Assembly (NCBI GenBank): GCA_964453435.1
Contig: CAYVQZ010000002.1
Location: forward strand, 20,555 to 84,554
Reading direction: 5' to 3'
Length of the DNA: 64,000 nt
From: an uncultured bacterium
GTDB lineage: Bacteria; Abyssobacteria; SURF-5
Both the position numbers and the translations under genes were made by a program. The stretch's first letter is position 1. Each line of letters begins with the position of its first letter. Positions 5,520-64,000 of the stretch are shown piece after piece. The notes beneath the pieces are model-generated. The model did no database searches. It was not told the origin of the DNA and saw only the letters and a program-made list of their open reading frames with translations.

Positions 5520-6806
5520 ATGAATGAAACACAAGAAGGACGAATCTTTTATGGCTGGTGGATAGTTCTTGCCAGTTCAATCATCATATTCTTTGGGACT
5601 GGCATAGCGTTTTACTCCTTTGGTGTTTTTATTAAACCAATAGAGGCTGAGCTTGGATGGAGCCGGGAAGTTCTGTCCCTCGGCGTTGCGGCCTGGGCTC
5701 TTGTTTTCGGTTTTTCCGGCCCGATAGTTGGCATCCTGCTGCATAAATATGGCGCTCGGGTGGTGATTGCAGGTTCAGCTTTGATTGCCGGCGTCTCGTA
5801 CATGCTCCTAATGTGGGTTGGCCATCTCTACCAGTTTTTCATCCTGATGATTATCATCGGGTTTGCCGCGGTCGGTATCACGCTCATACCGAATCAGACG
5901 CTCATCTCAAACTGGTTTCAGAGATATCGGGGCCGCGCCATGGGGCTTATGATGGCGGGCATCGGCCTGGGAGGCTTTACCATGCCCCAGGTCGCGAACT
6001 ATGTCATTGAATCGAGAGGTTGGCGAACATCTTTTTTCCTTTTGGGACTTTTTATATTAATTTTTATCGTGCCGGTCGCGCTGCTTGTTATCCGCACGAA
6101 ACCATCGGACATGGGGCTGAGACCTGATGGGGAACCAACCCGCGACCGTGAAGAAACAGAAGGCTCGTTCTTGGGAGATTCAATGGAAGCGGGTCTGCCC
6201 GTCGGACGCGCCATGAAGAGCGTATCGTTCTGGATGCTATTTGCTGCGTTTGCACTGTTGGTTTTCGGGGAATCCGGGTTCACCGTGCACTTTGTCGCCT
6301 TGGTGGACGATGCGGGGGTATCCTCTCAAATGGCGGCGTTTTTCTGGGGGCTCGTGGCGGGTGTGAGCGTTGTCGGGCGCCTTGGTTTCGGATTTCTGGC
6401 GGACCGCTGGAATCCCAGAAATCTCATAACGATGACCCATGCGTTACACGGTGTGGCGACCGTGGGGCTTCTCGTATTTTTTCTGGATATGGGTATCACA
6501 TCCGCTATCACATTGTTTCCGTTTTCAGTCGTCTACGGGCTGTCCCTGGGTGGCTCCGCAGTTTTGCTGCCGGTTCTGGTCGGTCGTTGCTTTGGTCTTT
6601 TAAATTTCAGCAAGCTTCTCGGTCTGCTGATGAGCGGGTTTGCCGTCGGAGTGTTGGGAGGCCCTTACGCAGCGGGCGCCATCGCCCACAAGACAGGCAG
6701 CTACCGTCCGGCAATCATCATTTTCGCTATTGGATTCGGCCTGGCGGCGTTTGCTGTCGCGCTTGTCCGGCCCGACAAATATAAAAGCGAATTCGTGCAG
6801 AGGTGA
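5520..6806 (+). CDS. MFS transporter
   Basis: About 12 predicted TM helices with the pattern typical of the oxalate/formate antiporter family. The track ORF starts at 5463, but ATG 5520 (MNETQEGRIFYGWW) has an ACGGAGA RBS 7 nt upstream. Confidence 0.8.
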   Translation: MNETQEGRIFYGWWIVLASSIIIFFGTGIAFYSFGVFIKPIEAELGWSREVLSLGVAAWALVFGFSGPIVGILLHKYGARVVIAGSALIAGVSYMLLMWVGHLYQFFILMIIIGFAAVGITLIPNQTLISNWFQRYRGRAMGLMMAGIGLGGFTMPQVANYVIESRGWRTSFFLLGLFILIFIVPVALLVIRTKPSDMGLRPDGEPTRDREETEGSFLGDSMEAGLPVGRAMKSVSFWMLFAAFALLVFGESGFTVHFVALVDDAGVSSQMAAFFWGLVAGVSVVGRLGFGFLADRWNPRNLITMTHALHGVATVGLLVFFLDMGITSAITLFPFSVVYGLSLGGSAVLLPVLVGRCFGLLNFSKLLGLLMSGFAVGVLGGPYAAGAIAHKTGSYRPAIIIFAIGFGLAAFAVALVRPDKYKSEFVQR

Positions 6807-37440: not shown

Positions 37441-37549
37441 GCGAATCTGTCCCGCGATTGCCCGGCGAAGGGGGCTGTCAGCGCGTCCCACGATTTATGA
37501 TTTCGGCTTAATTGGTGGACACCATGCGGCATGGTGTCCCCCAATAACC
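37441..37549 (+). repeat. dispersed intergenic repeat, family 2, copy 2 (GAATCTGTCCCGCGATTGCCCGGCGAAGGGG...GGACACCATGCgGCATGGTGTCCCCCAATAACC)
   Basis: Contains the 11-bp inverted repeat GGACACCATGC/GCATGGTGTCC and the shared core GTCCCCCAATAACC. Its 5' block GTCC(C/T)GCGATTGC..GCGAAGGGG is shared with the reverse-oriented copy at 40832-40877. Confidence 0.55.
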
Positions 37550-37866
37550 CGCATCGCCGGCCGTGGGAGAGGTTCACAGTGCCCGGCAGTTCGGTTGGTT
37601 GAATCCTGAGACATGCTCGGAATAGCGTTCGATAGCTCGTGCCTGTGTATCCCGCCCATGTTCCCACCGTTTCATCGTTTCAATATTGCCGGATTGGGGC
37701 TCGCGCATCGCGGCGGCGCAAGGCACTACTGTGGGGCGGAGCGCGTTGCGGGAGCGATTGACTTTCATTTAAGACGTTTGTTAATATTGAGGCGTAGAAC
37801 GGTTCTTGCCAGTTTCCTCTGTGTCTGCCCTCGTCAAATCGCACAATAAAGTGGGGGGAGTGTGTT

Positions 37867-41975: not shown

Positions 41976-42346
41976 TTTCCGGCAAGAATTTCATTGGCCT
42001 CCCATTTTTTATCCAGCCTGGTGGCGCTGTATGTGGCGCACTCGGAACAAATTCGTAATCGGCCACGTTGTTGTAACGGCAATCACGAAACCGTATTTCG
42101 GGAAAGGCATTATTTTCCGAAGCCAAGTATATGCTAAGCCAAGTCTTATCAAATAGTTACGCGAGTCAGAACGCAGTCAATCGGCTTGCGCGTCATGGCA
42201 CACAACTTGCCCTTTGCTTATCATACAAAAGAGCATTCGCGTTTGTTGATGGAGCGCTTGTTGGGCCGGGCAGACGTTATACCGCAAGCGCCGAGCCGAC
42301 GACCGCGATTTCGGAAAACAAATCGCGGCGCGGGCACAGGAAGGTG

Positions 42347-44350
42347 ATGAACATGGGAAGAAATCTGTTAATCCTGCTCATGCTGGTCTTTTTCAATGCG
42401 GCCGCGTTCGCTGAGACAGCGACATTCCATGTGGCGGAAACAGACCTGGAAGACACCTCCGCAGGGTTGGGCCTCTATGGGAGCTCGAATGATTTCGACA
42501 ACCCGAACGGCTGGCACTTCTTTGGTTATTCGCGTTACACGTATGCTTATTACAATGCGTATTGGCGGTGGGCGCTTACCATTCCGAAGGGCTCAATAAT
42601 AAACCATGCCTATGTGCGCATTCGTTCCGATTACACGAATTCGGGAAATCTCGATGCCGCCTTCCAGGCGCTTGTCGCGGACAAGAGATGGGAGACCGGT
42701 AAGGGATTCAACCGCGAAAGCTATCCCAACGGAACGGCCCTGAAAAATATCCCGCTGCAAGGGGCTCCCGTCGTTTGGGCCATAACGGACTCATGGAACG
42801 AGGGCGGCTGGCACGTCAGCCCGGACATAGCAGACCTCGTGCAGGAGCGTCTGTGGAACGTCGGTTATGCTCCGGACGGCGAAGAAGGAAAATATTTCGG
42901 CCTCGTGCTGAAGCATGTTTCCGGCTATGCGTACAGGACCGGCACGCAACAGCCCGACGATAATTCTTTTGTGGCTGAACTCTATGTGGACTGGACTCCG
43001 AATTTTGACGGAATGCCGGAATATGAGAGCATTGTTTTTCACGTGGGCGACTCCGACATCGAGGACACATACGCAGAAGGTCGGGTGGGCGGAACCAACG
43101 GCTTCGCCGACATAAACGGTCATCAATATGTCGGATATTCTGCGCTTACCGGAGCGATTTACGATTCTTATTGGCGATGGCCCTTGACCGTCCCGAAGGG
43201 GGCCACGATAGTCGAGGCGCACGTGCGGCTGCGTTCCAACTACACCACCTCAGGTTTGGTCGACACCGCTCTTGAGGCATTGTCGCCCGATGACAAATGG
43301 GAAGAGAGCGGTGGCTTCGGCGCCGATAATTATCCGGATGGAATGTCCCTGACCGACATTCCCCGGCAGGGATTGCCGGTGGTCTGGGACTTGATGCCCG
43401 ACTGGACCGTTGGAGATTGGTATCAGAGTCCGGACATTGCAAACCTTGTGCAGGAGCGTATCGATAACGGGGATTACGACCCCTTCGATATCAATTATCG
43501 GCATTTCGGGCTGGTATTGTCCTACATCGCGGGTTCCGGCTATCGGGTGGCGACACAGGAACCCCATGACGACACTCTCACCGCACACCTGTTCGTGAAA
43601 TGGATACCGCCCGACGACGGATGCGAAGAGGTCGAAGTCTGCGGCGATGGGATAGACAACGATTGCGACGGGGAAATTGACGAGTTCTGTAACACATGTC
43701 CAATTGCCGAAGCCGGAGGAGACCAGTCGGTATACCGGGGAGACATCGTGTTGCTCGACGGCAGCGGCAGTTCGGATGCAGACGGCGACCAGCTTGCCTA
43801 TATGTGGTCGCTTGTCAGCAGGCCCGAAGGCAGCTCGGCGGCGCTTTCCGGCTCGCTGACGGCGACGCCCGCATTCGCAGCGGATGCGCCCGGCGACTAC
43901 ATAATCGAACTCGTTGTCGATGACGGCGCGTGTTCGAGTGAGCCTGATACCTGCATCGTCACGGCTTTCATCCCGGAATATCTCTGTCCCATGGGTATGG
44001 GATATTGGAAAAACCATTCCGACGAATGGCCGGTTCAGTCGATGTGGTTGGGAGCGGTGAACTATACCAGGGATGAATTGCTTGCGATCCTGAAGAGGCC
44101 CGTGAAGGGCGACGCCAGCATGCTGCTTGCTCGCCAGCTCATTTCAGCGAAACTTAACATCGCGAACGGTTCCGACCCGCGTCCGGTTGAAGAAACTGTC
44201 ATCGTGGCGGACCAATTGCTCAGTGGGTTCTCTGGCCCACTGCCTTACAAAGTGAAACCGTCCTCCGGTACCGGCCGCTCTATGCTCGAGGCCGCGAAAA
44301 TTCTCGATGCATACAACGGGGGTGAGCTGACGCCGGAGTGCGAGCCGTAA
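42347..44350 (+). CDS. large secreted protein: two tandem ~200-aa repeats of an unknown domain + PKD-like (K319L-type) domain + C-terminal domain
   Basis: The start was moved to ATG 42347 (RBS AGGAAGG; signal peptide MNMGRNLLILLMLVFFNAAAFA). Repeat 1 (FHVAETDLEDTS...ELYVDWTP) and repeat 2 (FHVGDSDIEDTY...HLFVKWIP) share YWRW(A/P)LT(I/V)PKG, SPDIA(D/N)LVQER and HFGLVLS. A Cys-rich linker (CGDGIDNDCDGEIDEFC) follows, then LLDGSGSSDADGDQLAYMWSLV (PKD-like). Confidence 0.7.
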   Translation: MNMGRNLLILLMLVFFNAAAFAETATFHVAETDLEDTSAGLGLYGSSNDFDNPNGWHFFGYSRYTYAYYNAYWRWALTIPKGSIINHAYVRIRSDYTNSGNLDAAFQALVADKRWETGKGFNRESYPNGTALKNIPLQGAPVVWAITDSWNEGGWHVSPDIADLVQERLWNVGYAPDGEEGKYFGLVLKHVSGYAYRTGTQQPDDNSFVAELYVDWTPNFDGMPEYESIVFHVGDSDIEDTYAEGRVGGTNGFADINGHQYVGYSALTGAIYDSYWRWPLTVPKGATIVEAHVRLRSNYTTSGLVDTALEALSPDDKWEESGGFGADNYPDGMSLTDIPRQGLPVVWDLMPDWTVGDWYQSPDIANLVQERIDNGDYDPFDINYRHFGLVLSYIAGSGYRVATQEPHDDTLTAHLFVKWIPPDDGCEEVEVCGDGIDNDCDGEIDEFCNTCPIAEAGGDQSVYRGDIVLLDGSGSSDADGDQLAYMWSLVSRPEGSSAALSGSLTATPAFAADAPGDYIIELVVDDGACSSEPDTCIVTAFIPEYLCPMGMGYWKNHSDEWPVQSMWLGAVNYTRDELLAILKRPVKGDASMLLARQLISAKLNIANGSDPRPVEETVIVADQLLSGFSGPLPYKVKPSSGTGRSMLEAAKILDAYNGGELTPECEP

Positions 44351-44371
44351 GATTTTCTCTTCCCCTTATAC

Positions 44372-44427
44372 CGACGAGGGCCGCAAGCGCGAGGACGGAG
44401 CGCTTTGCGGCTCTCGTCTTTGATTTC
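44372..44427 (+). terminator. candidate rho-independent terminator after the large secreted-protein gene
   Basis: An imperfect stem of about 18 bp, CGACGAGGGCCGCAAGCGC / GCGCTTTGCGGCTCTCGTC, with loop GAGGACGGA is followed by TTTGATTTC. It lies 22 nt after the TAA stop. Confidence 0.4.
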
Positions 44428-44844
44428 GAGCCCGCATTCTCAGATAAGATAGTAACATAGTCCTGTTTGAGCCAAATATTCAATCGTGCAGAGCTTTGCC
44501 CACTCCAACCGGCGCCGGCGCCATCTTCTTCGCCAGGGTATCGCTGCGGGGAAATTTTCGTGGTCTTGCGGTCGAAAGAGGTCATTTGTGAGTTTTGGCG
44601 TTGTGAGCTTGCTTACAGACCGAAATATTGTTAATGTATTTTATTGTTTTAGGAGGGCCGGACTCAGGCTTCCCGGGACAAGTACTGCGCGGAAGCGCGG
44701 AGCGCCGAATCGAGGAGCGGTCCGGGTGGCTGGAATTTTTGAATAAAACGAGTGTATGCAACGTCTATAATAATAATGGCAGTTGCTAAACTTGGCGTTG
44801 TTTTGGTGAATGGGGGAAAGTTGTCTAAGCGAAAGGAAGGGATT

Positions 44845-45387
44845 ATGAGAAGCTTGTTGTGGGTAGTGACGGTGTTAATTGCATTCGGGCTGGTCAGTTC
44901 ATCGAGTTCCGCCGAAAACGCCGAGCACAATTACGTTGGCGTGAAGGGCTGCAAAATGTGTCATATGGCGCCGGCCAAAGGCGCTCAGTATAAATCATGG
45001 GAAGAATCCAAGCACGCGAAAGCCTATGAGACCCTCGGCACAGAGGAAGCCAAGAAAATTGCCGCCGAACAAGGGATAGAGGACCCGCAGAAGAGCGCGG
45101 AATGTCTGAAGTGCCACGTGACCGGATATGGCGCTGACGCGTCGCGGTTCGAACCCACGTACACGATGGAGGAAGGTGTGGGCTGCGAAAGCTGTCACGG
45201 CGCGGGCAAAGACTACAAGAACATCAAAATAATGAAGGATGTGGAACAGGCGAAAGCCAACGGGCTCATCCTGCCGACTGAGGAGGTCTGCAGGAAATGT
45301 CACAACGAAGAGAGCCCGACCTATAAAGAGTTCGATTTTGAGGCAAGATACAAGGAAATAGCCCACCCGAGGCCCGAAAAGGAGTAG
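44845..45387 (+). CDS. tetraheme c-type cytochrome (secreted)
   Basis: Four CxxCH motifs (CKMCH, CLKCH, CESCH, CRKCH) in about 150 aa after a signal peptide (MRSLLWVVTVLIAFGLVSSSSSA). The start was moved to ATG 44845, which has the RBS AAAGGAAGG (track ORF 44752). Confidence 0.75.
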   Translation: MRSLLWVVTVLIAFGLVSSSSSAENAEHNYVGVKGCKMCHMAPAKGAQYKSWEESKHAKAYETLGTEEAKKIAAEQGIEDPQKSAECLKCHVTGYGADASRFEPTYTMEEGVGCESCHGAGKDYKNIKIMKDVEQAKANGLILPTEEVCRKCHNEESPTYKEFDFEARYKEIAHPRPEKE

Positions 45388-45486
45388 GGGAAAGCTTTTC
45401 AAAACCTTGTTGTCACACATCTCCCATGTCTTAATTGGGGGGAATTCCGACGGAGTTCCCCCCATCTGTTTTGCGGTTGGTGACGC

Positions 45487-45530
45487 GGGTTATCGGGAGG
45501 AGCCATGCCGCATGGTGTCCCCAATAAACC
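45487..45530 (+). repeat. dispersed intergenic repeat, family 2, copy 4 (GGGTTATCGGG...CCATGCCGCATGGTGTCCCCAATAAACC)
   Basis: Shares the CATGGTGTCCCCAATAA(A)CC core with the copies at 8940, 37517 and 40832. It lies between the cytochrome c and EncFtn-like genes. Confidence 0.5.
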
Positions 45531-45751: not shown

Positions 45752-46045
45752 ATGGCAGGGGCATATCATGAGCCGCACGAGAGACTCTCGAAAAGCACGC
45801 AGGATTTACACCGCGCCTGGATGTCGCTGAAAGAGGAAATCGAAGCAATGGACTGGTATCAGCAGCGCATCGATGCCACCGACAACAAAGAACTGAAGGA
45901 CATTCTGGCACATAACCGGGATGAAGAAAAAGAGCACGCAGCGATGCTCATGGAGTGGATACGCAGGAACGACGCCGAATTCGCGAAGGAGATGAAGGAT
46001 TATCTGTTCACCGAAAAACCGGTAACCGAAATCGAGGAATCGTAG
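45752..46045 (+). CDS. EncFtn-like (encapsulated-ferritin family) ferritin-like protein, without recognisable cargo-loading peptide
   Basis: 97 aa. The segment EEIEAMDWYQQRIDATDNKELKDILAHNRDEEKEHAAMLMEWIRRNDAEFAKEMKDYLFTEKP matches, by recall, the EncFtn ferroxidase signature (E/Y/E-x-x-H spacing 29/36/59/62; ILAHNRDEEKEHAAM). RBS AAGGAGG lies 8 nt upstream. The protein ends ...TEIEES with no GSL-type targeting tail, and no encapsulin gene is adjacent. Confidence 0.55.
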   Translation: MAGAYHEPHERLSKSTQDLHRAWMSLKEEIEAMDWYQQRIDATDNKELKDILAHNRDEEKEHAAMLMEWIRRNDAEFAKEMKDYLFTEKPVTEIEES

Positions 46046-46066: not shown

Positions 46067-47017
46067 ATGATTCATTTTCATCAGCCGCTGTCTACAGTGC
46101 CGCATTTTCACGCACGCGAGGAGGGTGAAGGTCAGCATTTTCATCGCGTGGTCGAACGCAGGCGACTTATCCTGGCAATGGCAGTGACGGGCGGCGCGAT
46201 GGTTGTGGAGGTGGTTGGCGGCCTGCTCACCGGCAGTCTCGCCCTCCTGAGCGACGCCGGCCACATGCTTACTCACTTCTTTGCGTTGCTGGTGAGCTTC
46301 ATCGCCATCAAGCTGGCGGCCCTGCCCACTCGCCCCAACCGAAGCTTTGGTTTGTACAGGGTCGAGGTGCTTGCGGCGCTGTTCAACGGTATCACCCTGT
46401 TATTCATCATTGCCTTCATTTTCCATGAAGCGGTCAACCGGCTCCTGAATCCCGCGCCGATCAAAGTATTGCCCATGCTCATGGTGGCCGTTGTCGGATT
46501 GGTCGTCAACATGGTTTCGGCGATTATCTTGCTCGACGTGGGCAAGACCGACTTGAACGTGCGCAGTGCGTTCCTGCACATGCTCGGAGATACGGCATCG
46601 TCGGGCGGCATCGTTATCGGTTCCGTGGTCATCTACTTCACGGGCTGGTATGCGATCGACCCCATGCTGAGCATGCTCATTGCCCTTGTAATCCTTGTTT
46701 GGAGCTGGAATCTTCTCAGGGATTCGGTTAACATTTTGCTCGAAACCGCTCCCCGGCATATTGACATCGATGATGTGATCAAAGCGATTCGGGTAAGTGC
46801 GCCGGAGGTCGCCGACGTGCACGACGTGCACATTTGGGAGATTACCTCGCAGATGTATTCCATGACCGCTCACATTGTCTTTCGGGACGACTGTCATGTC
46901 AGCGAATGCGCGGCCGTGTTCGAGCGTCTCCGTCGGCCATTGCTCGAGCAGTTTCGGATATCCCATGTCAATTTCAGTCCCGAGTACGACCGTTCGTCGC
47001 AAGGCCGGGGAGCTTGA
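46067..47017 (+). CDS. cation diffusion facilitator (CDF) family divalent-metal efflux transporter
   Basis: 316 aa with an N-terminal His-rich segment (HFHQP...HFHAREEGEGQHFH), six TM helices with metal-site motifs LLSDAGHML and HMLGDTASS, and a C-terminal cytoplasmic domain typical of CzcD/FieF. Confidence 0.85.
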   Translation: MIHFHQPLSTVPHFHAREEGEGQHFHRVVERRRLILAMAVTGGAMVVEVVGGLLTGSLALLSDAGHMLTHFFALLVSFIAIKLAALPTRPNRSFGLYRVEVLAALFNGITLLFIIAFIFHEAVNRLLNPAPIKVLPMLMVAVVGLVVNMVSAIILLDVGKTDLNVRSAFLHMLGDTASSGGIVIGSVVIYFTGWYAIDPMLSMLIALVILVWSWNLLRDSVNILLETAPRHIDIDDVIKAIRVSAPEVADVHDVHIWEITSQMYSMTAHIVFRDDCHVSECAAVFERLRRPLLEQFRISHVNFSPEYDRSSQGRGA

Positions 47018-63131: not shown

Positions 63132-64000
63132 CATGGCCACTGACGTTGTTATGCCAAAATTGAGCGACACGATGGAGGAAGGCCGCATTATCAAGTGGCT
63201 GAAACAAGTGGGTGACCACGTGAAAGAAGGGGAGCCGCTGCTCGAAGTTGAAACGGACAAGGCGGACATCGAGGTGGAGGCGTTTGATACCGGCTCCTTG
63301 CTCGAGATACTTGTCGATGAGGGCGAGACGATCAAGGTGGGCGAAAAGATTGCCGTCATTGGAGCCGCGGAAGAGGCAAAACCGGCCGAGGAACCGGCAG
63401 AAACGGAAGAAGAAAAAGCAGAAGAAGCCGAGCAGGAAGAAAAGGCCGAAGAAGAAGCCGAGGCGGTAGAAGAACGACCGGCGCCTGAAGCGGAGGAGAA
63501 GATCGAGAAAAAAGAGAAAGAAGAGAAAGAGGCTCCGGCAGAGAAAAAGAAAGAGGAGGAGCGCGCAAAAAAGGAAGAAGAAAAGAAGCGCGCACAGAAG
63601 GAGGAAGAGGAAAGAAAAAAGAAAGAACAGAAAAGAAAAAAGGAAGAAGAGGAAGAGCGCCAAAAAAAGAAGAAGGAAGAAGAAAAAAAGAAAGAGGAAG
63701 AGGAGAAAAAAGCCGAGGTCCCACAGAAAACCGGGAAGGAGCGCAAAGAAGAACAACAGCGTGAACGCGACGTGAAAGTCCATATGGAACAGCGGGAAGC
63801 GATCGAGAAGTTCGTCGCCCGCCCCGCACCCGGAAAAGTGAAGGCATCCCCTCTTGCCAGAGAACTCGCTCAACAGCATGATATCGATCTCTCCGAAGTG
63901 CGGGGCACCGGTCCCGGCGGAGAGATTGTGAAACGGGATATCGAAAAAGTTATCGGCGGTGAGGCGAAGGCGAAGCCGGCGGTCGAAGAAAAACCAACAG
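63132..64000 (+). CDS. dihydrolipoamide acyltransferase (E2) of 2-oxoacid dehydrogenase complex; 3' end beyond window
   Basis: The lipoyl domain MATDVVMPKLSDTMEEGRIIKWLK...ETDKADIEVEAFD contains the lipoyl-Lys. An exceptionally long Lys/Glu-rich linker of about 120 aa follows, then the peripheral subunit-binding domain SPLARELAQQHDIDLSEVRGTGPGGEIVKRDIE. There is no stop before 64000, so it is absent from the ORF track. Confidence 0.8.

Follow-up and report, generated by a model that had tools for sequence, protein, structure and literature searches.

Which role can be assigned to an exported protein built around two copies of a domain that an earlier note, made from the sequence alone, could not place in any family? 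The question is raised by a gene located in a 64-kb stretch of DNA (hereafter the window) from an uncultured bacterium of the Abyssobacteria lineage SURF-5. All coordinates follow the numbering of the window, P numbers designate proteins found in searches and L numbers designate genome loci. The gene is real and conserved, and it encodes a Sec-exported modular protein. We propose, with a probability of about 0.6, that its product is a sigma-54-controlled, exported, non-catalytic modular protein predicted to bind a polymer in a lectin-like manner. The features needed first are the coding sequence and its two repeats, with lengths given in amino acids (aa).

42347–44350, forward strand: coding sequence, 667 aa from 42347 and more probably 665 aa from 42353, with the stop codon TAA at 44348–44350
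42413–43003, forward strand: repeat 1 (R1), aa 23–219, a divergent DNRLRE/CBM96-type beta-sandwich
43025–43612, forward strand: repeat 2 (R2), aa 227–422, the same domain as R1

The twin repeats and their superfamily

R1 and R2 align over 203 aa with a single gap and 48% identity (BLASTP E 2e-68), far past chance, which bears out the internal tandem duplication described in the earlier note. No nucleotide-level repeat between them was detected in the window DNA. The repeat motifs quoted in that note are all present, apart from two slips: R2 reads GHQYVGYS and not GW..., and R1 reads YFGLVLK and not HFGLVL.

A search with the full-length protein retrieved P0001, which is 98% identical, and full-length homologues at 49–53% identity, namely P0003 from Ca. 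Abyssobacteria SURF_5, P0005 from SURF_17, and P0002, P0004, P0006 and P0007 from metagenome contigs. Shorter homologues with one repeat are P0010, from a Hydrogenedentota genome, and P0022. Every homologue combines a signal peptide with one or two repeats, between one and three PKD domains and the C-terminal domain seen here; the family comprises about ten members at 90% clustering, all within a narrow lineage. When the repeats are grouped, first repeats cluster together and second repeats do likewise, both inside P0002/P0003/P0006 and inside P0004/P0005/P0007. Hence, the duplication predates the divergence within these two orthologue subgroups. The two repeats of the window gene form long branches outside both of them. 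The duplication is thus both real and old. In SURF_5, the gene directly upstream of P0003 encodes a tandem paralogue, P0121 (L083:1660–3774), in which the same twin DNRLRE-like cassette is joined to a C-terminal half of about 270 aa, unrelated to the window protein and without a Pfam match. Thus, the repeat pair behaves as a transferable unit.

The 16 repeats of the family were used for library scans, for building a repeat profile and for composition analysis. The library models concerned are DNRLRE_dom (NCBIfam NF033679, curated cut-off 34 bits) and CBM96 (Pfam PF24517). Against the whole protein, DNRLRE_dom aligned with R2 only (aa 259–322, E 1.1e-4, 22.3 bits, under the cut-off), and it matched six of the 16 repeats (best E 1.2e-5). 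Neither the whole protein nor a single one of the 16 repeats matched Pfam CBM96 at E ≤ 1, and the Pfam scan of these repeats returned noise only.

Structures have been solved for two CBM96 modules: PDB 7VBO shows TM6-N4, which belongs to the alginate lyase Dp0100, and PDB 8WAB shows a module that binds chondroitin sulfate. For R1, the AlphaFold model (pLDDT 89.5, pTM 0.88) predicts the two-sheet beta-sandwich fold of the solved DNRLRE/CBM96 members. With this model, Foldseek returned the two solved CBM96 modules among the top matches, interleaved with BMP9 prodomains. In the structural comparison, the two best matches are non-catalytic binding modules, well apart from all others; after a clear drop come TGF-beta-family prodomains, scoring 9.5 at most, and many CBM32, CBM35 and CBM6 modules at about 7. 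The second-tier fold neighbours of R1 comprise the BMP9/10 and activin prodomains, PNGase F and BcsB, and the same secondary neighbours were reported for CBM96 itself (PMC9971899).

The sequence link was obtained through intermediates. The 16-repeat profile, run against 1.84 billion cluster representatives, retrieved 1384 proteins at E ≤ 1e-3, including 185 at E ≤ 1e-10. In ten of the 1384 that were sampled, Pfam annotation is almost nil, and it is nil on the repeat region. Among 75 sampled relatives, DNRLRE_dom matches 27 (best E 1.3e-14) and Pfam CBM96 three (best E 6.6e-5). Five bridging proteins (P0195, P0198, P0213, P0214 and P0266) match the repeat profile with E values from 1e-11 to 1e-16 and carry DNRLRE_dom on the same residues; in P0195, the repeat profile covers 39–168 and DNRLRE_dom 43–166, with 42.4 bits, over the 34-bit cut-off. 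Alignment of the repeats to the DNRLRE-positive bridging regions with hhalign gave a probability of 99.6% (E 3.6e-24, 165 columns), to be read as transitive and not independent evidence of homology, since the bridging sequences themselves came from the repeat-profile search. The blocks common to both sides are R[FW]..[LV].IP.G[SA].I..A, V.W....W....Y.SPD...LVQ and R....[YQ][DE]......L.[VI].[WY]. Sequence-profile homology to the DNRLRE/CBM96 superfamily was found in this transitive way.

The sub-threshold DNRLRE_dom matches, together with the transitive and profile–profile homology, argue for membership of the superfamily. Sequence profiles and the predicted fold place the repeats in the DNRLRE/CBM96 superfamily, as a divergent branch missed by the Pfam and NCBIfam models now in use. 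The view of the earlier note that they are unplaceable and form a new family therefore fails at the superfamily level, and what survives is a divergent subfamily. The same note had taken a confident match to a well-known carbohydrate-binding family as speaking against its proposal; such a family was indeed reached by structure and transitive homology, with no direct match above threshold.

Could the repeats nevertheless be catalytic? A cryptic glycan- or peptide-cleaving jelly-roll enzyme could be imagined, with an active site made of the Glu-Asp of the EDT motif and of conserved Arg, Gln and Tyr; the invariant residues E13-D14, R175 and Q179 and the nearly invariant R52 would suit such a site. 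W93, Y104 and Y152 are invariant in the repeats as well. We consider this very unlikely. The two structural matches that stand clear of the rest bind without catalysis, known catalytic families give no sequence match, and wider relatives append the domain to GH16 enzymes, M12 peptidases and NosD-like beta-helices, which is the pattern of an ancillary module. Moreover, no enzyme domain was found in the protein by Pfam, NCBIfam and PDB sequence searches. The lectin or adhesin guess of the earlier note is reasonable, as the repeats have a carbohydrate-binding-module fold and no catalytic domain is detectable.

The wider relatives also include secreted single-domain proteins of about 230 aa. As a separate observation, several of these (P0122, P0127, P0130, P0134, P0138 and others) end with one of two conserved tail types, either a hydrophobic strand followed by RR (..QVIIIRR) or an aromatic tail (..Y.GY), which could be sorting or assembly signals.

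The gene, its promoter and its surroundings

The remaining parts of the gene, apart from its 3'-terminal domain, are as follows, with distances in nucleotides (nt).

42196–42210, forward strand: sigma-54 (−24/−12) promoter core TGGCACacaacTTGC, a perfect TGGCAC-N5-TTGC, intergenic
42338–42344, forward strand: Shine-Dalgarno sequence AGGAAGG, read from the sequence, 8 nt ahead of the ATG at 42353 and 2 nt ahead of the ATG at 42347
42347–42412, forward strand: Sec signal peptide, aa 1–22, cleavage after AFA, same layout in all homologues
43622–43699, forward strand: acidic Cys-rich knot, aa 426–451, with five Cys; linker CEEVEVCGDGIDNDCDGEIDEFCNTC
43691–43963, forward strand: PKD domain, K319L-like, aa 449–539
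44373–44418, forward strand: terminator hairpin, ΔG −35.4 kcal/mol, z −3.63, followed by CTTTGATTT, 22 nt past the stop codon

The homologue N-termini read M-[KR]-R-x-L (MKRKL, MRRFL), and the second ATG of the window gene gives MGRNLL.... Because of this match and of the Shine-Dalgarno spacing, the start at 42353 is preferred; the true start is probably this ATG, with a product of 665 aa. The longest possible open reading frame (ORF) opens at 42131. Its 5' extension occurs in no homologue, and since the promoter sits inside it, we regard it as non-coding. Another ORF of 255 aa, antisense to the gene at 43250–44017 on the reverse strand, was rejected as a shadow of the conserved coding frame; a similar antisense ORF lies opposite the conserved C-terminal domain in 40 related loci.

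As read from the sequence, the signal peptide (MNMGRNLLILLMLVFFNAAAFA, followed by E) has the usual n-, h- and c-regions and an A-x-A site, AFA before E, in agreement with the secretion claimed earlier; inspection showed neither a lipobox nor a Cys in it. The mature protein has 645 aa, an isoelectric point (pI) of 4.24 and nine Cys, with none in either repeat. NCBIfam and Pfam gave no match in the protein to known C-terminal sorting signals, that is the C-terminal domain (CTD) of the type IX secretion system (T9SS), LPXTG or PEP/PGF-CTERM. Inspection of the C-terminus, which reads ...YNGGELTPECEP, showed no hydrophobic segment or anchor.

The promoter core is the only match to TGGCAC-N5-TTGC on both strands of the window, where 0.11 is expected, and it is found 143–157 nt ahead of the start codons, 143 nt from the first ATG. 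Promoter-like elements were also found ahead of four homologues:

P0010: TGGTACggataTTGC, 104 nt upstream of the ATG
P0022: TGGTATagaagTTGC, 95 nt upstream of the ATG
P0006: AGGAACaatttTTGC, 63 nt upstream of the ATG
P0005: TGGCAAgaatcTTGA, 79 nt upstream of the ATG, a weaker element

The background for matches at nine or more of the ten positions is 0.014 per 450 nt. In addition, a gene for an NtrC-type sigma-54 activator lies immediately upstream of P0005. Expression of the window gene would depend on sigma-54 and an enhancer-binding protein. An inverted repeat that could be an activator site was searched for upstream of the promoter and was not found. Separately, a direct repeat GTGGCGC-N5-GTGGCGC is present at 42021–42041, some 170 nt ahead of the sigma-54 promoter, and could be an activator site. 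Since Rfam gave no match at E ≤ 1 between 41800 and 45000, no riboswitch is expected in the leader of about 130 nt. With the sigma-54-type core upstream and the hairpin terminator downstream, the gene seems to be transcribed as a unit of its own; the terminator had been recognized in the earlier note.

That note also described dispersed repeats flanking the gene. This could not be confirmed, as no second copy of either flanking intergenic region (41976–42346 and 44351–44851) was found within the window, where the gene itself is single copy. The closest dispersed element, a palindrome at 45474–45520 that pairs with 37517–37563, is located 1.1 kb downstream, past the next gene. This 47-nt element, found twice in inverted orientation with the palindrome GGACACCATGCGGCATGGTGTCC, shows 81% complementarity, and both copies are intergenic.

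Between the repeats and the C-terminal domain, the Cys/Asp-rich linker announced previously, a putative calcium binder at most, is present. Its likeness to the MopE-type metal-binding motif is sub-threshold: PF11617 (Cu-binding_MopE) gives 20.7 bits for a cut-off of 27, and NF033662, an acidic double-disulfide repeat, gives E 0.031. The homologue P0010 was named by NCBI after a MopE-type metal-binding motif. The knot is not present in three of the eight homologues (P0004, P0005 and P0007). The PKD-like module is also confirmed: PF22352 (38.9 bits, aa 456–539) and PF18911 (31.9 bits) each exceed the 27-bit cut-off, and PDB 6NZ0 (KIAA0319L) matches it by sequence with E 4e-5.

In the window, the gene is preceded by genes for an AMP-dependent ligase, an HGD-D family protein and an amidohydrolase, and followed by genes for a cytochrome c554-like protein, an EncFtn-like protein and a cation diffusion facilitator (CDF) transporter. 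The surroundings vary across the family. P0002, P0003 and P0006 have an MFS transporter gene upstream and, for P0002 and P0003, LTXXQ/Metal_resist genes downstream; in SURF_5, the MFS gene precedes and the LTXXQ/Metal_resist genes follow the P0121–P0003 pair. P0010 has HGD-D genes downstream. Some further observations concern the window itself. The cytochrome c554-like gene, at 44845–45387, is multihaem. The EncFtn-like gene, of the encapsulated-ferritin type, occupies 45752–46045 and is separated by 21 nt from the CDF gene at 46067–47017; an encapsulin shell gene was not noticed beside this pair. Near the window end, at 63250–63700, purine-rich imperfect direct repeats apparently encode a Lys/Glu-rich low-complexity stretch.

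These surroundings raise the idea of a periplasmic or envelope protein linked to metals or stress, in which the acidic modules and the MopE-like knot would bind cations as part of a sigma-54 stress regulon. Such a role would fit the presence of the MopE-type motif, even if sub-threshold, the very acidic mature protein, the sigma-54 promoter, the CDF and EncFtn-like neighbours in the window and the LTXXQ/Metal_resist (Spy/ZraP-like) genes that follow P0002 and P0003. In Escherichia coli, zraP is sigma-54 dependent. However, the knot is missing from three of eight homologues and is hence dispensable, the neighbours differ between loci, and the metal-related neighbours have a spacing of their own and, within the window, lie on the far side of the terminator. 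Finally, the dominant conserved part of the protein is a CBM-type fold. We therefore regard a metal- or stress-linked function as unlikely, and polymer binding by the repeats as the better account.

The C-terminal helical domain

The last part of the protein is a distinct domain, as had been noticed earlier.

43976–44347, forward strand: C-terminal domain, about 123 aa (aa 544–667), helical, CP.G.G[YF]WKNH ... YN.G.LTP.C

Its fuller pattern is CP.GQG[FY]WKNH..WP ... GDAS.ILA.QLIAAKLN ... LPY.V ... YN.G.LTP.C, with the conserved Cys547 and Cys665 at the two ends. The model (pLDDT 94.8) predicts a bundle of several helices with a beta-hairpin. The domain has no match in Pfam or NCBIfam, its profile found nothing significant among PDB sequences, and a literature search on its motifs found no paper containing them.

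The profile, built from eight family sequences, retrieved at least 853 protein clusters at E ≤ 1e-3, and a scan of one genome per species yielded at least 358 loci, with several copies per genome. The best 80 of the 358 loci, at 41–60% identity to the query, are spread over Bacteria and Archaea. The bacterial ones belong to Abyssobacteria, Verrucomicrobiota (Udaeobacter, Chthoniobacterales), Planctomycetota, Acidobacteriota, Chloroflexota, Myxococcota, Rokubacteria, Acidimicrobiia and a cultured Bacteroidota species, Solirubrum puertoriconensis; the archaeal ones belong to Thermoplasmata and Methanomassiliicoccales. Identity across Verrucomicrobiota, Planctomycetota, Acidobacteriota, Chloroflexota, Myxococcota, Abyssobacteria/Hydrogenedentota and Thermoplasmata lies at 45–60%. 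Across 81 full ORFs, the domain is left uncovered by every Pfam family, and its partners are extracellular modules such as BNR/sortilin propellers, SdrD_B, PKD, CarboxypepD_reg, SBBP, He_PIG, Ig-like and cadherin-like domains. Its carriers include diderm bacteria, monoderm bacteria and archaea alike, which speaks against dependence on a single secretion system.

The domain is mostly the last one. It also stands right after the signal peptide in Anaerolineae, is duplicated in some proteins and is internal in giant proteins. These placements rule out a strict sorting signal and, because of this variable position, the domain is better described as a mobile extracellular module. Thermoplasmata and Planctomycetota proteins continue after it with a short linker, a transmembrane helix and a basic tail, in a CTERM-like arrangement; wherever an anchor is present, the domain adjoins the membrane segment. 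Among side observations, the tails at L017, L026, L011 and L012, from metagenome-assembled genomes of Thermoplasmata, other archaea and a Planctomycetota member (for example SGLPGWLWILVPVVALAAIVALIRFKPWK), resemble PGF/PEP-CTERM-type sorting signals. In the Anaerolineae ORFs L032, L033, L041, L042, L046, L050, L054 and L058, which contain the match near 6001, the N-terminal GYWKNH domain is followed by a Thr/Pro/Glu-rich linker and, after it, by a second conserved, unannotated, beta-rich region of about 110 aa (IIVIEGPV.AININIITIYNI.I.LD.NDP ... VWRDDG.C.NPPPPWAPANGWRRRC).

A conserved partner gene near the domain was looked for by clustering the ORFs of 79 loci; none emerged, and the outcome was rejected as operon evidence. 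The clusters consisted of antisense shadow ORFs and of lineage-specific synteny in Udaeobacter, which also accounts for most of the Ser/Thr-kinase ORFs seen in 18 loci; NtrC-type regulators occur at nine of the 79 loci, within chance.

Because the helical domain sits immediately before the anchor in relatives having a membrane anchor or CTERM signal, a docking role can be proposed. Tentatively, then, the domain may be an undescribed family serving as a common docking or base module through which surface proteins would be attached to a conserved partner or to some component of the envelope, a suggestion we hold as rather doubtful.

A docking-like terminal domain would also suit a structural component of the cell surface, S-layer-like or sheath-like, in which the modules would be building blocks and not ligand binders. 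The definition of DNRLRE repeats goes back to cell-surface proteins of Methanosarcina and other organisms (PMC2447325; PMC9971899), so that their first description concerns archaeal and bacterial surface proteins, and the tandem copies and the PKD domain fit a surface assembly as well. Against this, the gene is single copy in the window, the family with its ten or so clusters is confined to a narrow lineage, the C-terminus has no anchor or sorting signal, and the sigma-54-dependent promoter suggests conditional and not constitutive high expression. A structural role is thus improbable. Overall, each of the three rival explanations has less support than the binding-module reading.

Proposed polymer binding and comparison with known systems

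In the mechanism that we favor, the two CBM96-like modules of the exported protein would bind a polymer outside the cell or in its envelope, a glycan being the likeliest, and the presence of two copies would provide avidity. The disulfide-knotted acidic segment and the PKD domain would form a rigid spacer, and the C-terminal helical domain, probably closed by a Cys547–Cys665 disulfide, would be the docking or base module.

The nature of the ligand may be approached by composition. In TM6-N4, a shallow positive groove (Lys10, 22, 25, 27, 31, Arg36 and Tyr159) binds acidic polysaccharides (PMC9971899). The first 40 residues contain no Lys or Arg in R1 and a single Arg in R2. All 16 family repeats are acidic (pI 4.0–4.8) and aromatic-rich (13–17% W+Y+F); for the modules of the window protein, the values are pI 4.3–4.8 and 13–16%. 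Being acidic, below the curated cut-offs and devoid of the basic groove, the repeats qualify as a divergent subfamily. For the same reasons of charge and aromatic content, the ligand is probably not a polyanionic uronate held by charge; a neutral polymer, or binding bridged by cations, is the likelier case.

Several points weigh against polymer binding as proposed here. The repeats miss the NF033679 cut-off (22.3 for 34 bits) with no Pfam CBM96 match, and the repeat profiles found no PDB chain by sequence even at E ≤ 10, including 7VBO and 8WAB; because these direct searches gave nothing, the CBM96 link comes from structure and transitive profiles. By a comparison of residues made without superposition, the basic alginate-binding groove of CBM96 is not conserved. 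Members of the superfamily are not always carbohydrate binders, since the DNRLRE domain of a PHB depolymerase is a presumed substrate-binding domain with a neutral surface (PMC12278694); as DNRLRE domains are found on PL8 lyases too (PMC13260240), ligand specificity clearly varies within the superfamily. Gene context is not conserved over the family, and no glycan-utilisation genes were seen at the loci examined. Concerning regulation, the window encodes no NtrC-family protein or other enhancer-binding protein. If the host is diderm, a protein with nothing but a Sec signal would stay in the periplasm. Finally, the docking role of the C-terminal domain is deduced solely from the order of domains.

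For the organism, this analysis adds another putative secreted binding protein, probably expressed conditionally, and alters no pathway picture. The protein is mostly an ordinary modular secreted protein, whose really unannotated part is the C-terminal domain; highly conserved, phylogenetically very wide and without a library match, this domain is a clear candidate for a new domain-family entry. More broadly, placing the repeats in a superfamily gives "hypothetical proteins" (1384 representatives) a testable role as polymer-binding modules.

Compared with known systems, the parts of the protein behave differently. The prodomain arm of TGF-beta relatives (BMP9, BMP10, activin A) shares a fold resemblance only, with no sequence relationship detected, and these are eukaryotic latency domains. 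The K319L-like PKD domain (PF22352) is present here in a single copy, with three each in P0002 and P0003, and points to no specific function. From the MopE "putative metal-binding motif", the pattern C-x-DG-x-DNDCDG-x-x-DE is visible at aa 432–446, as one sub-threshold copy. The C-terminal domain is analogous to the T9SS CTD, to PEP-CTERM/PGF-CTERM and to dockerins, in that it is usually terminal in diverse secreted proteins with several copies per genome. It differs from all of these in being helical, about 120 aa long and without a transmembrane segment, in having no sequence or structure match with them, and in that it can be N-terminal or duplicated. Finally, compared with CBM96/DNRLRE modules, the repeats are about 30 residues longer, with an extra conserved segment D.[KR]W[EN]..GF...NY..G..L..I..QG, and those of the window protein are carried without a lyase or other enzyme. 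With an acidic, aromatic-rich branch beside the basic, uronate-binding CBM96 modules known so far, the ligands of the superfamily probably span a wider range than the two solved cases indicate.

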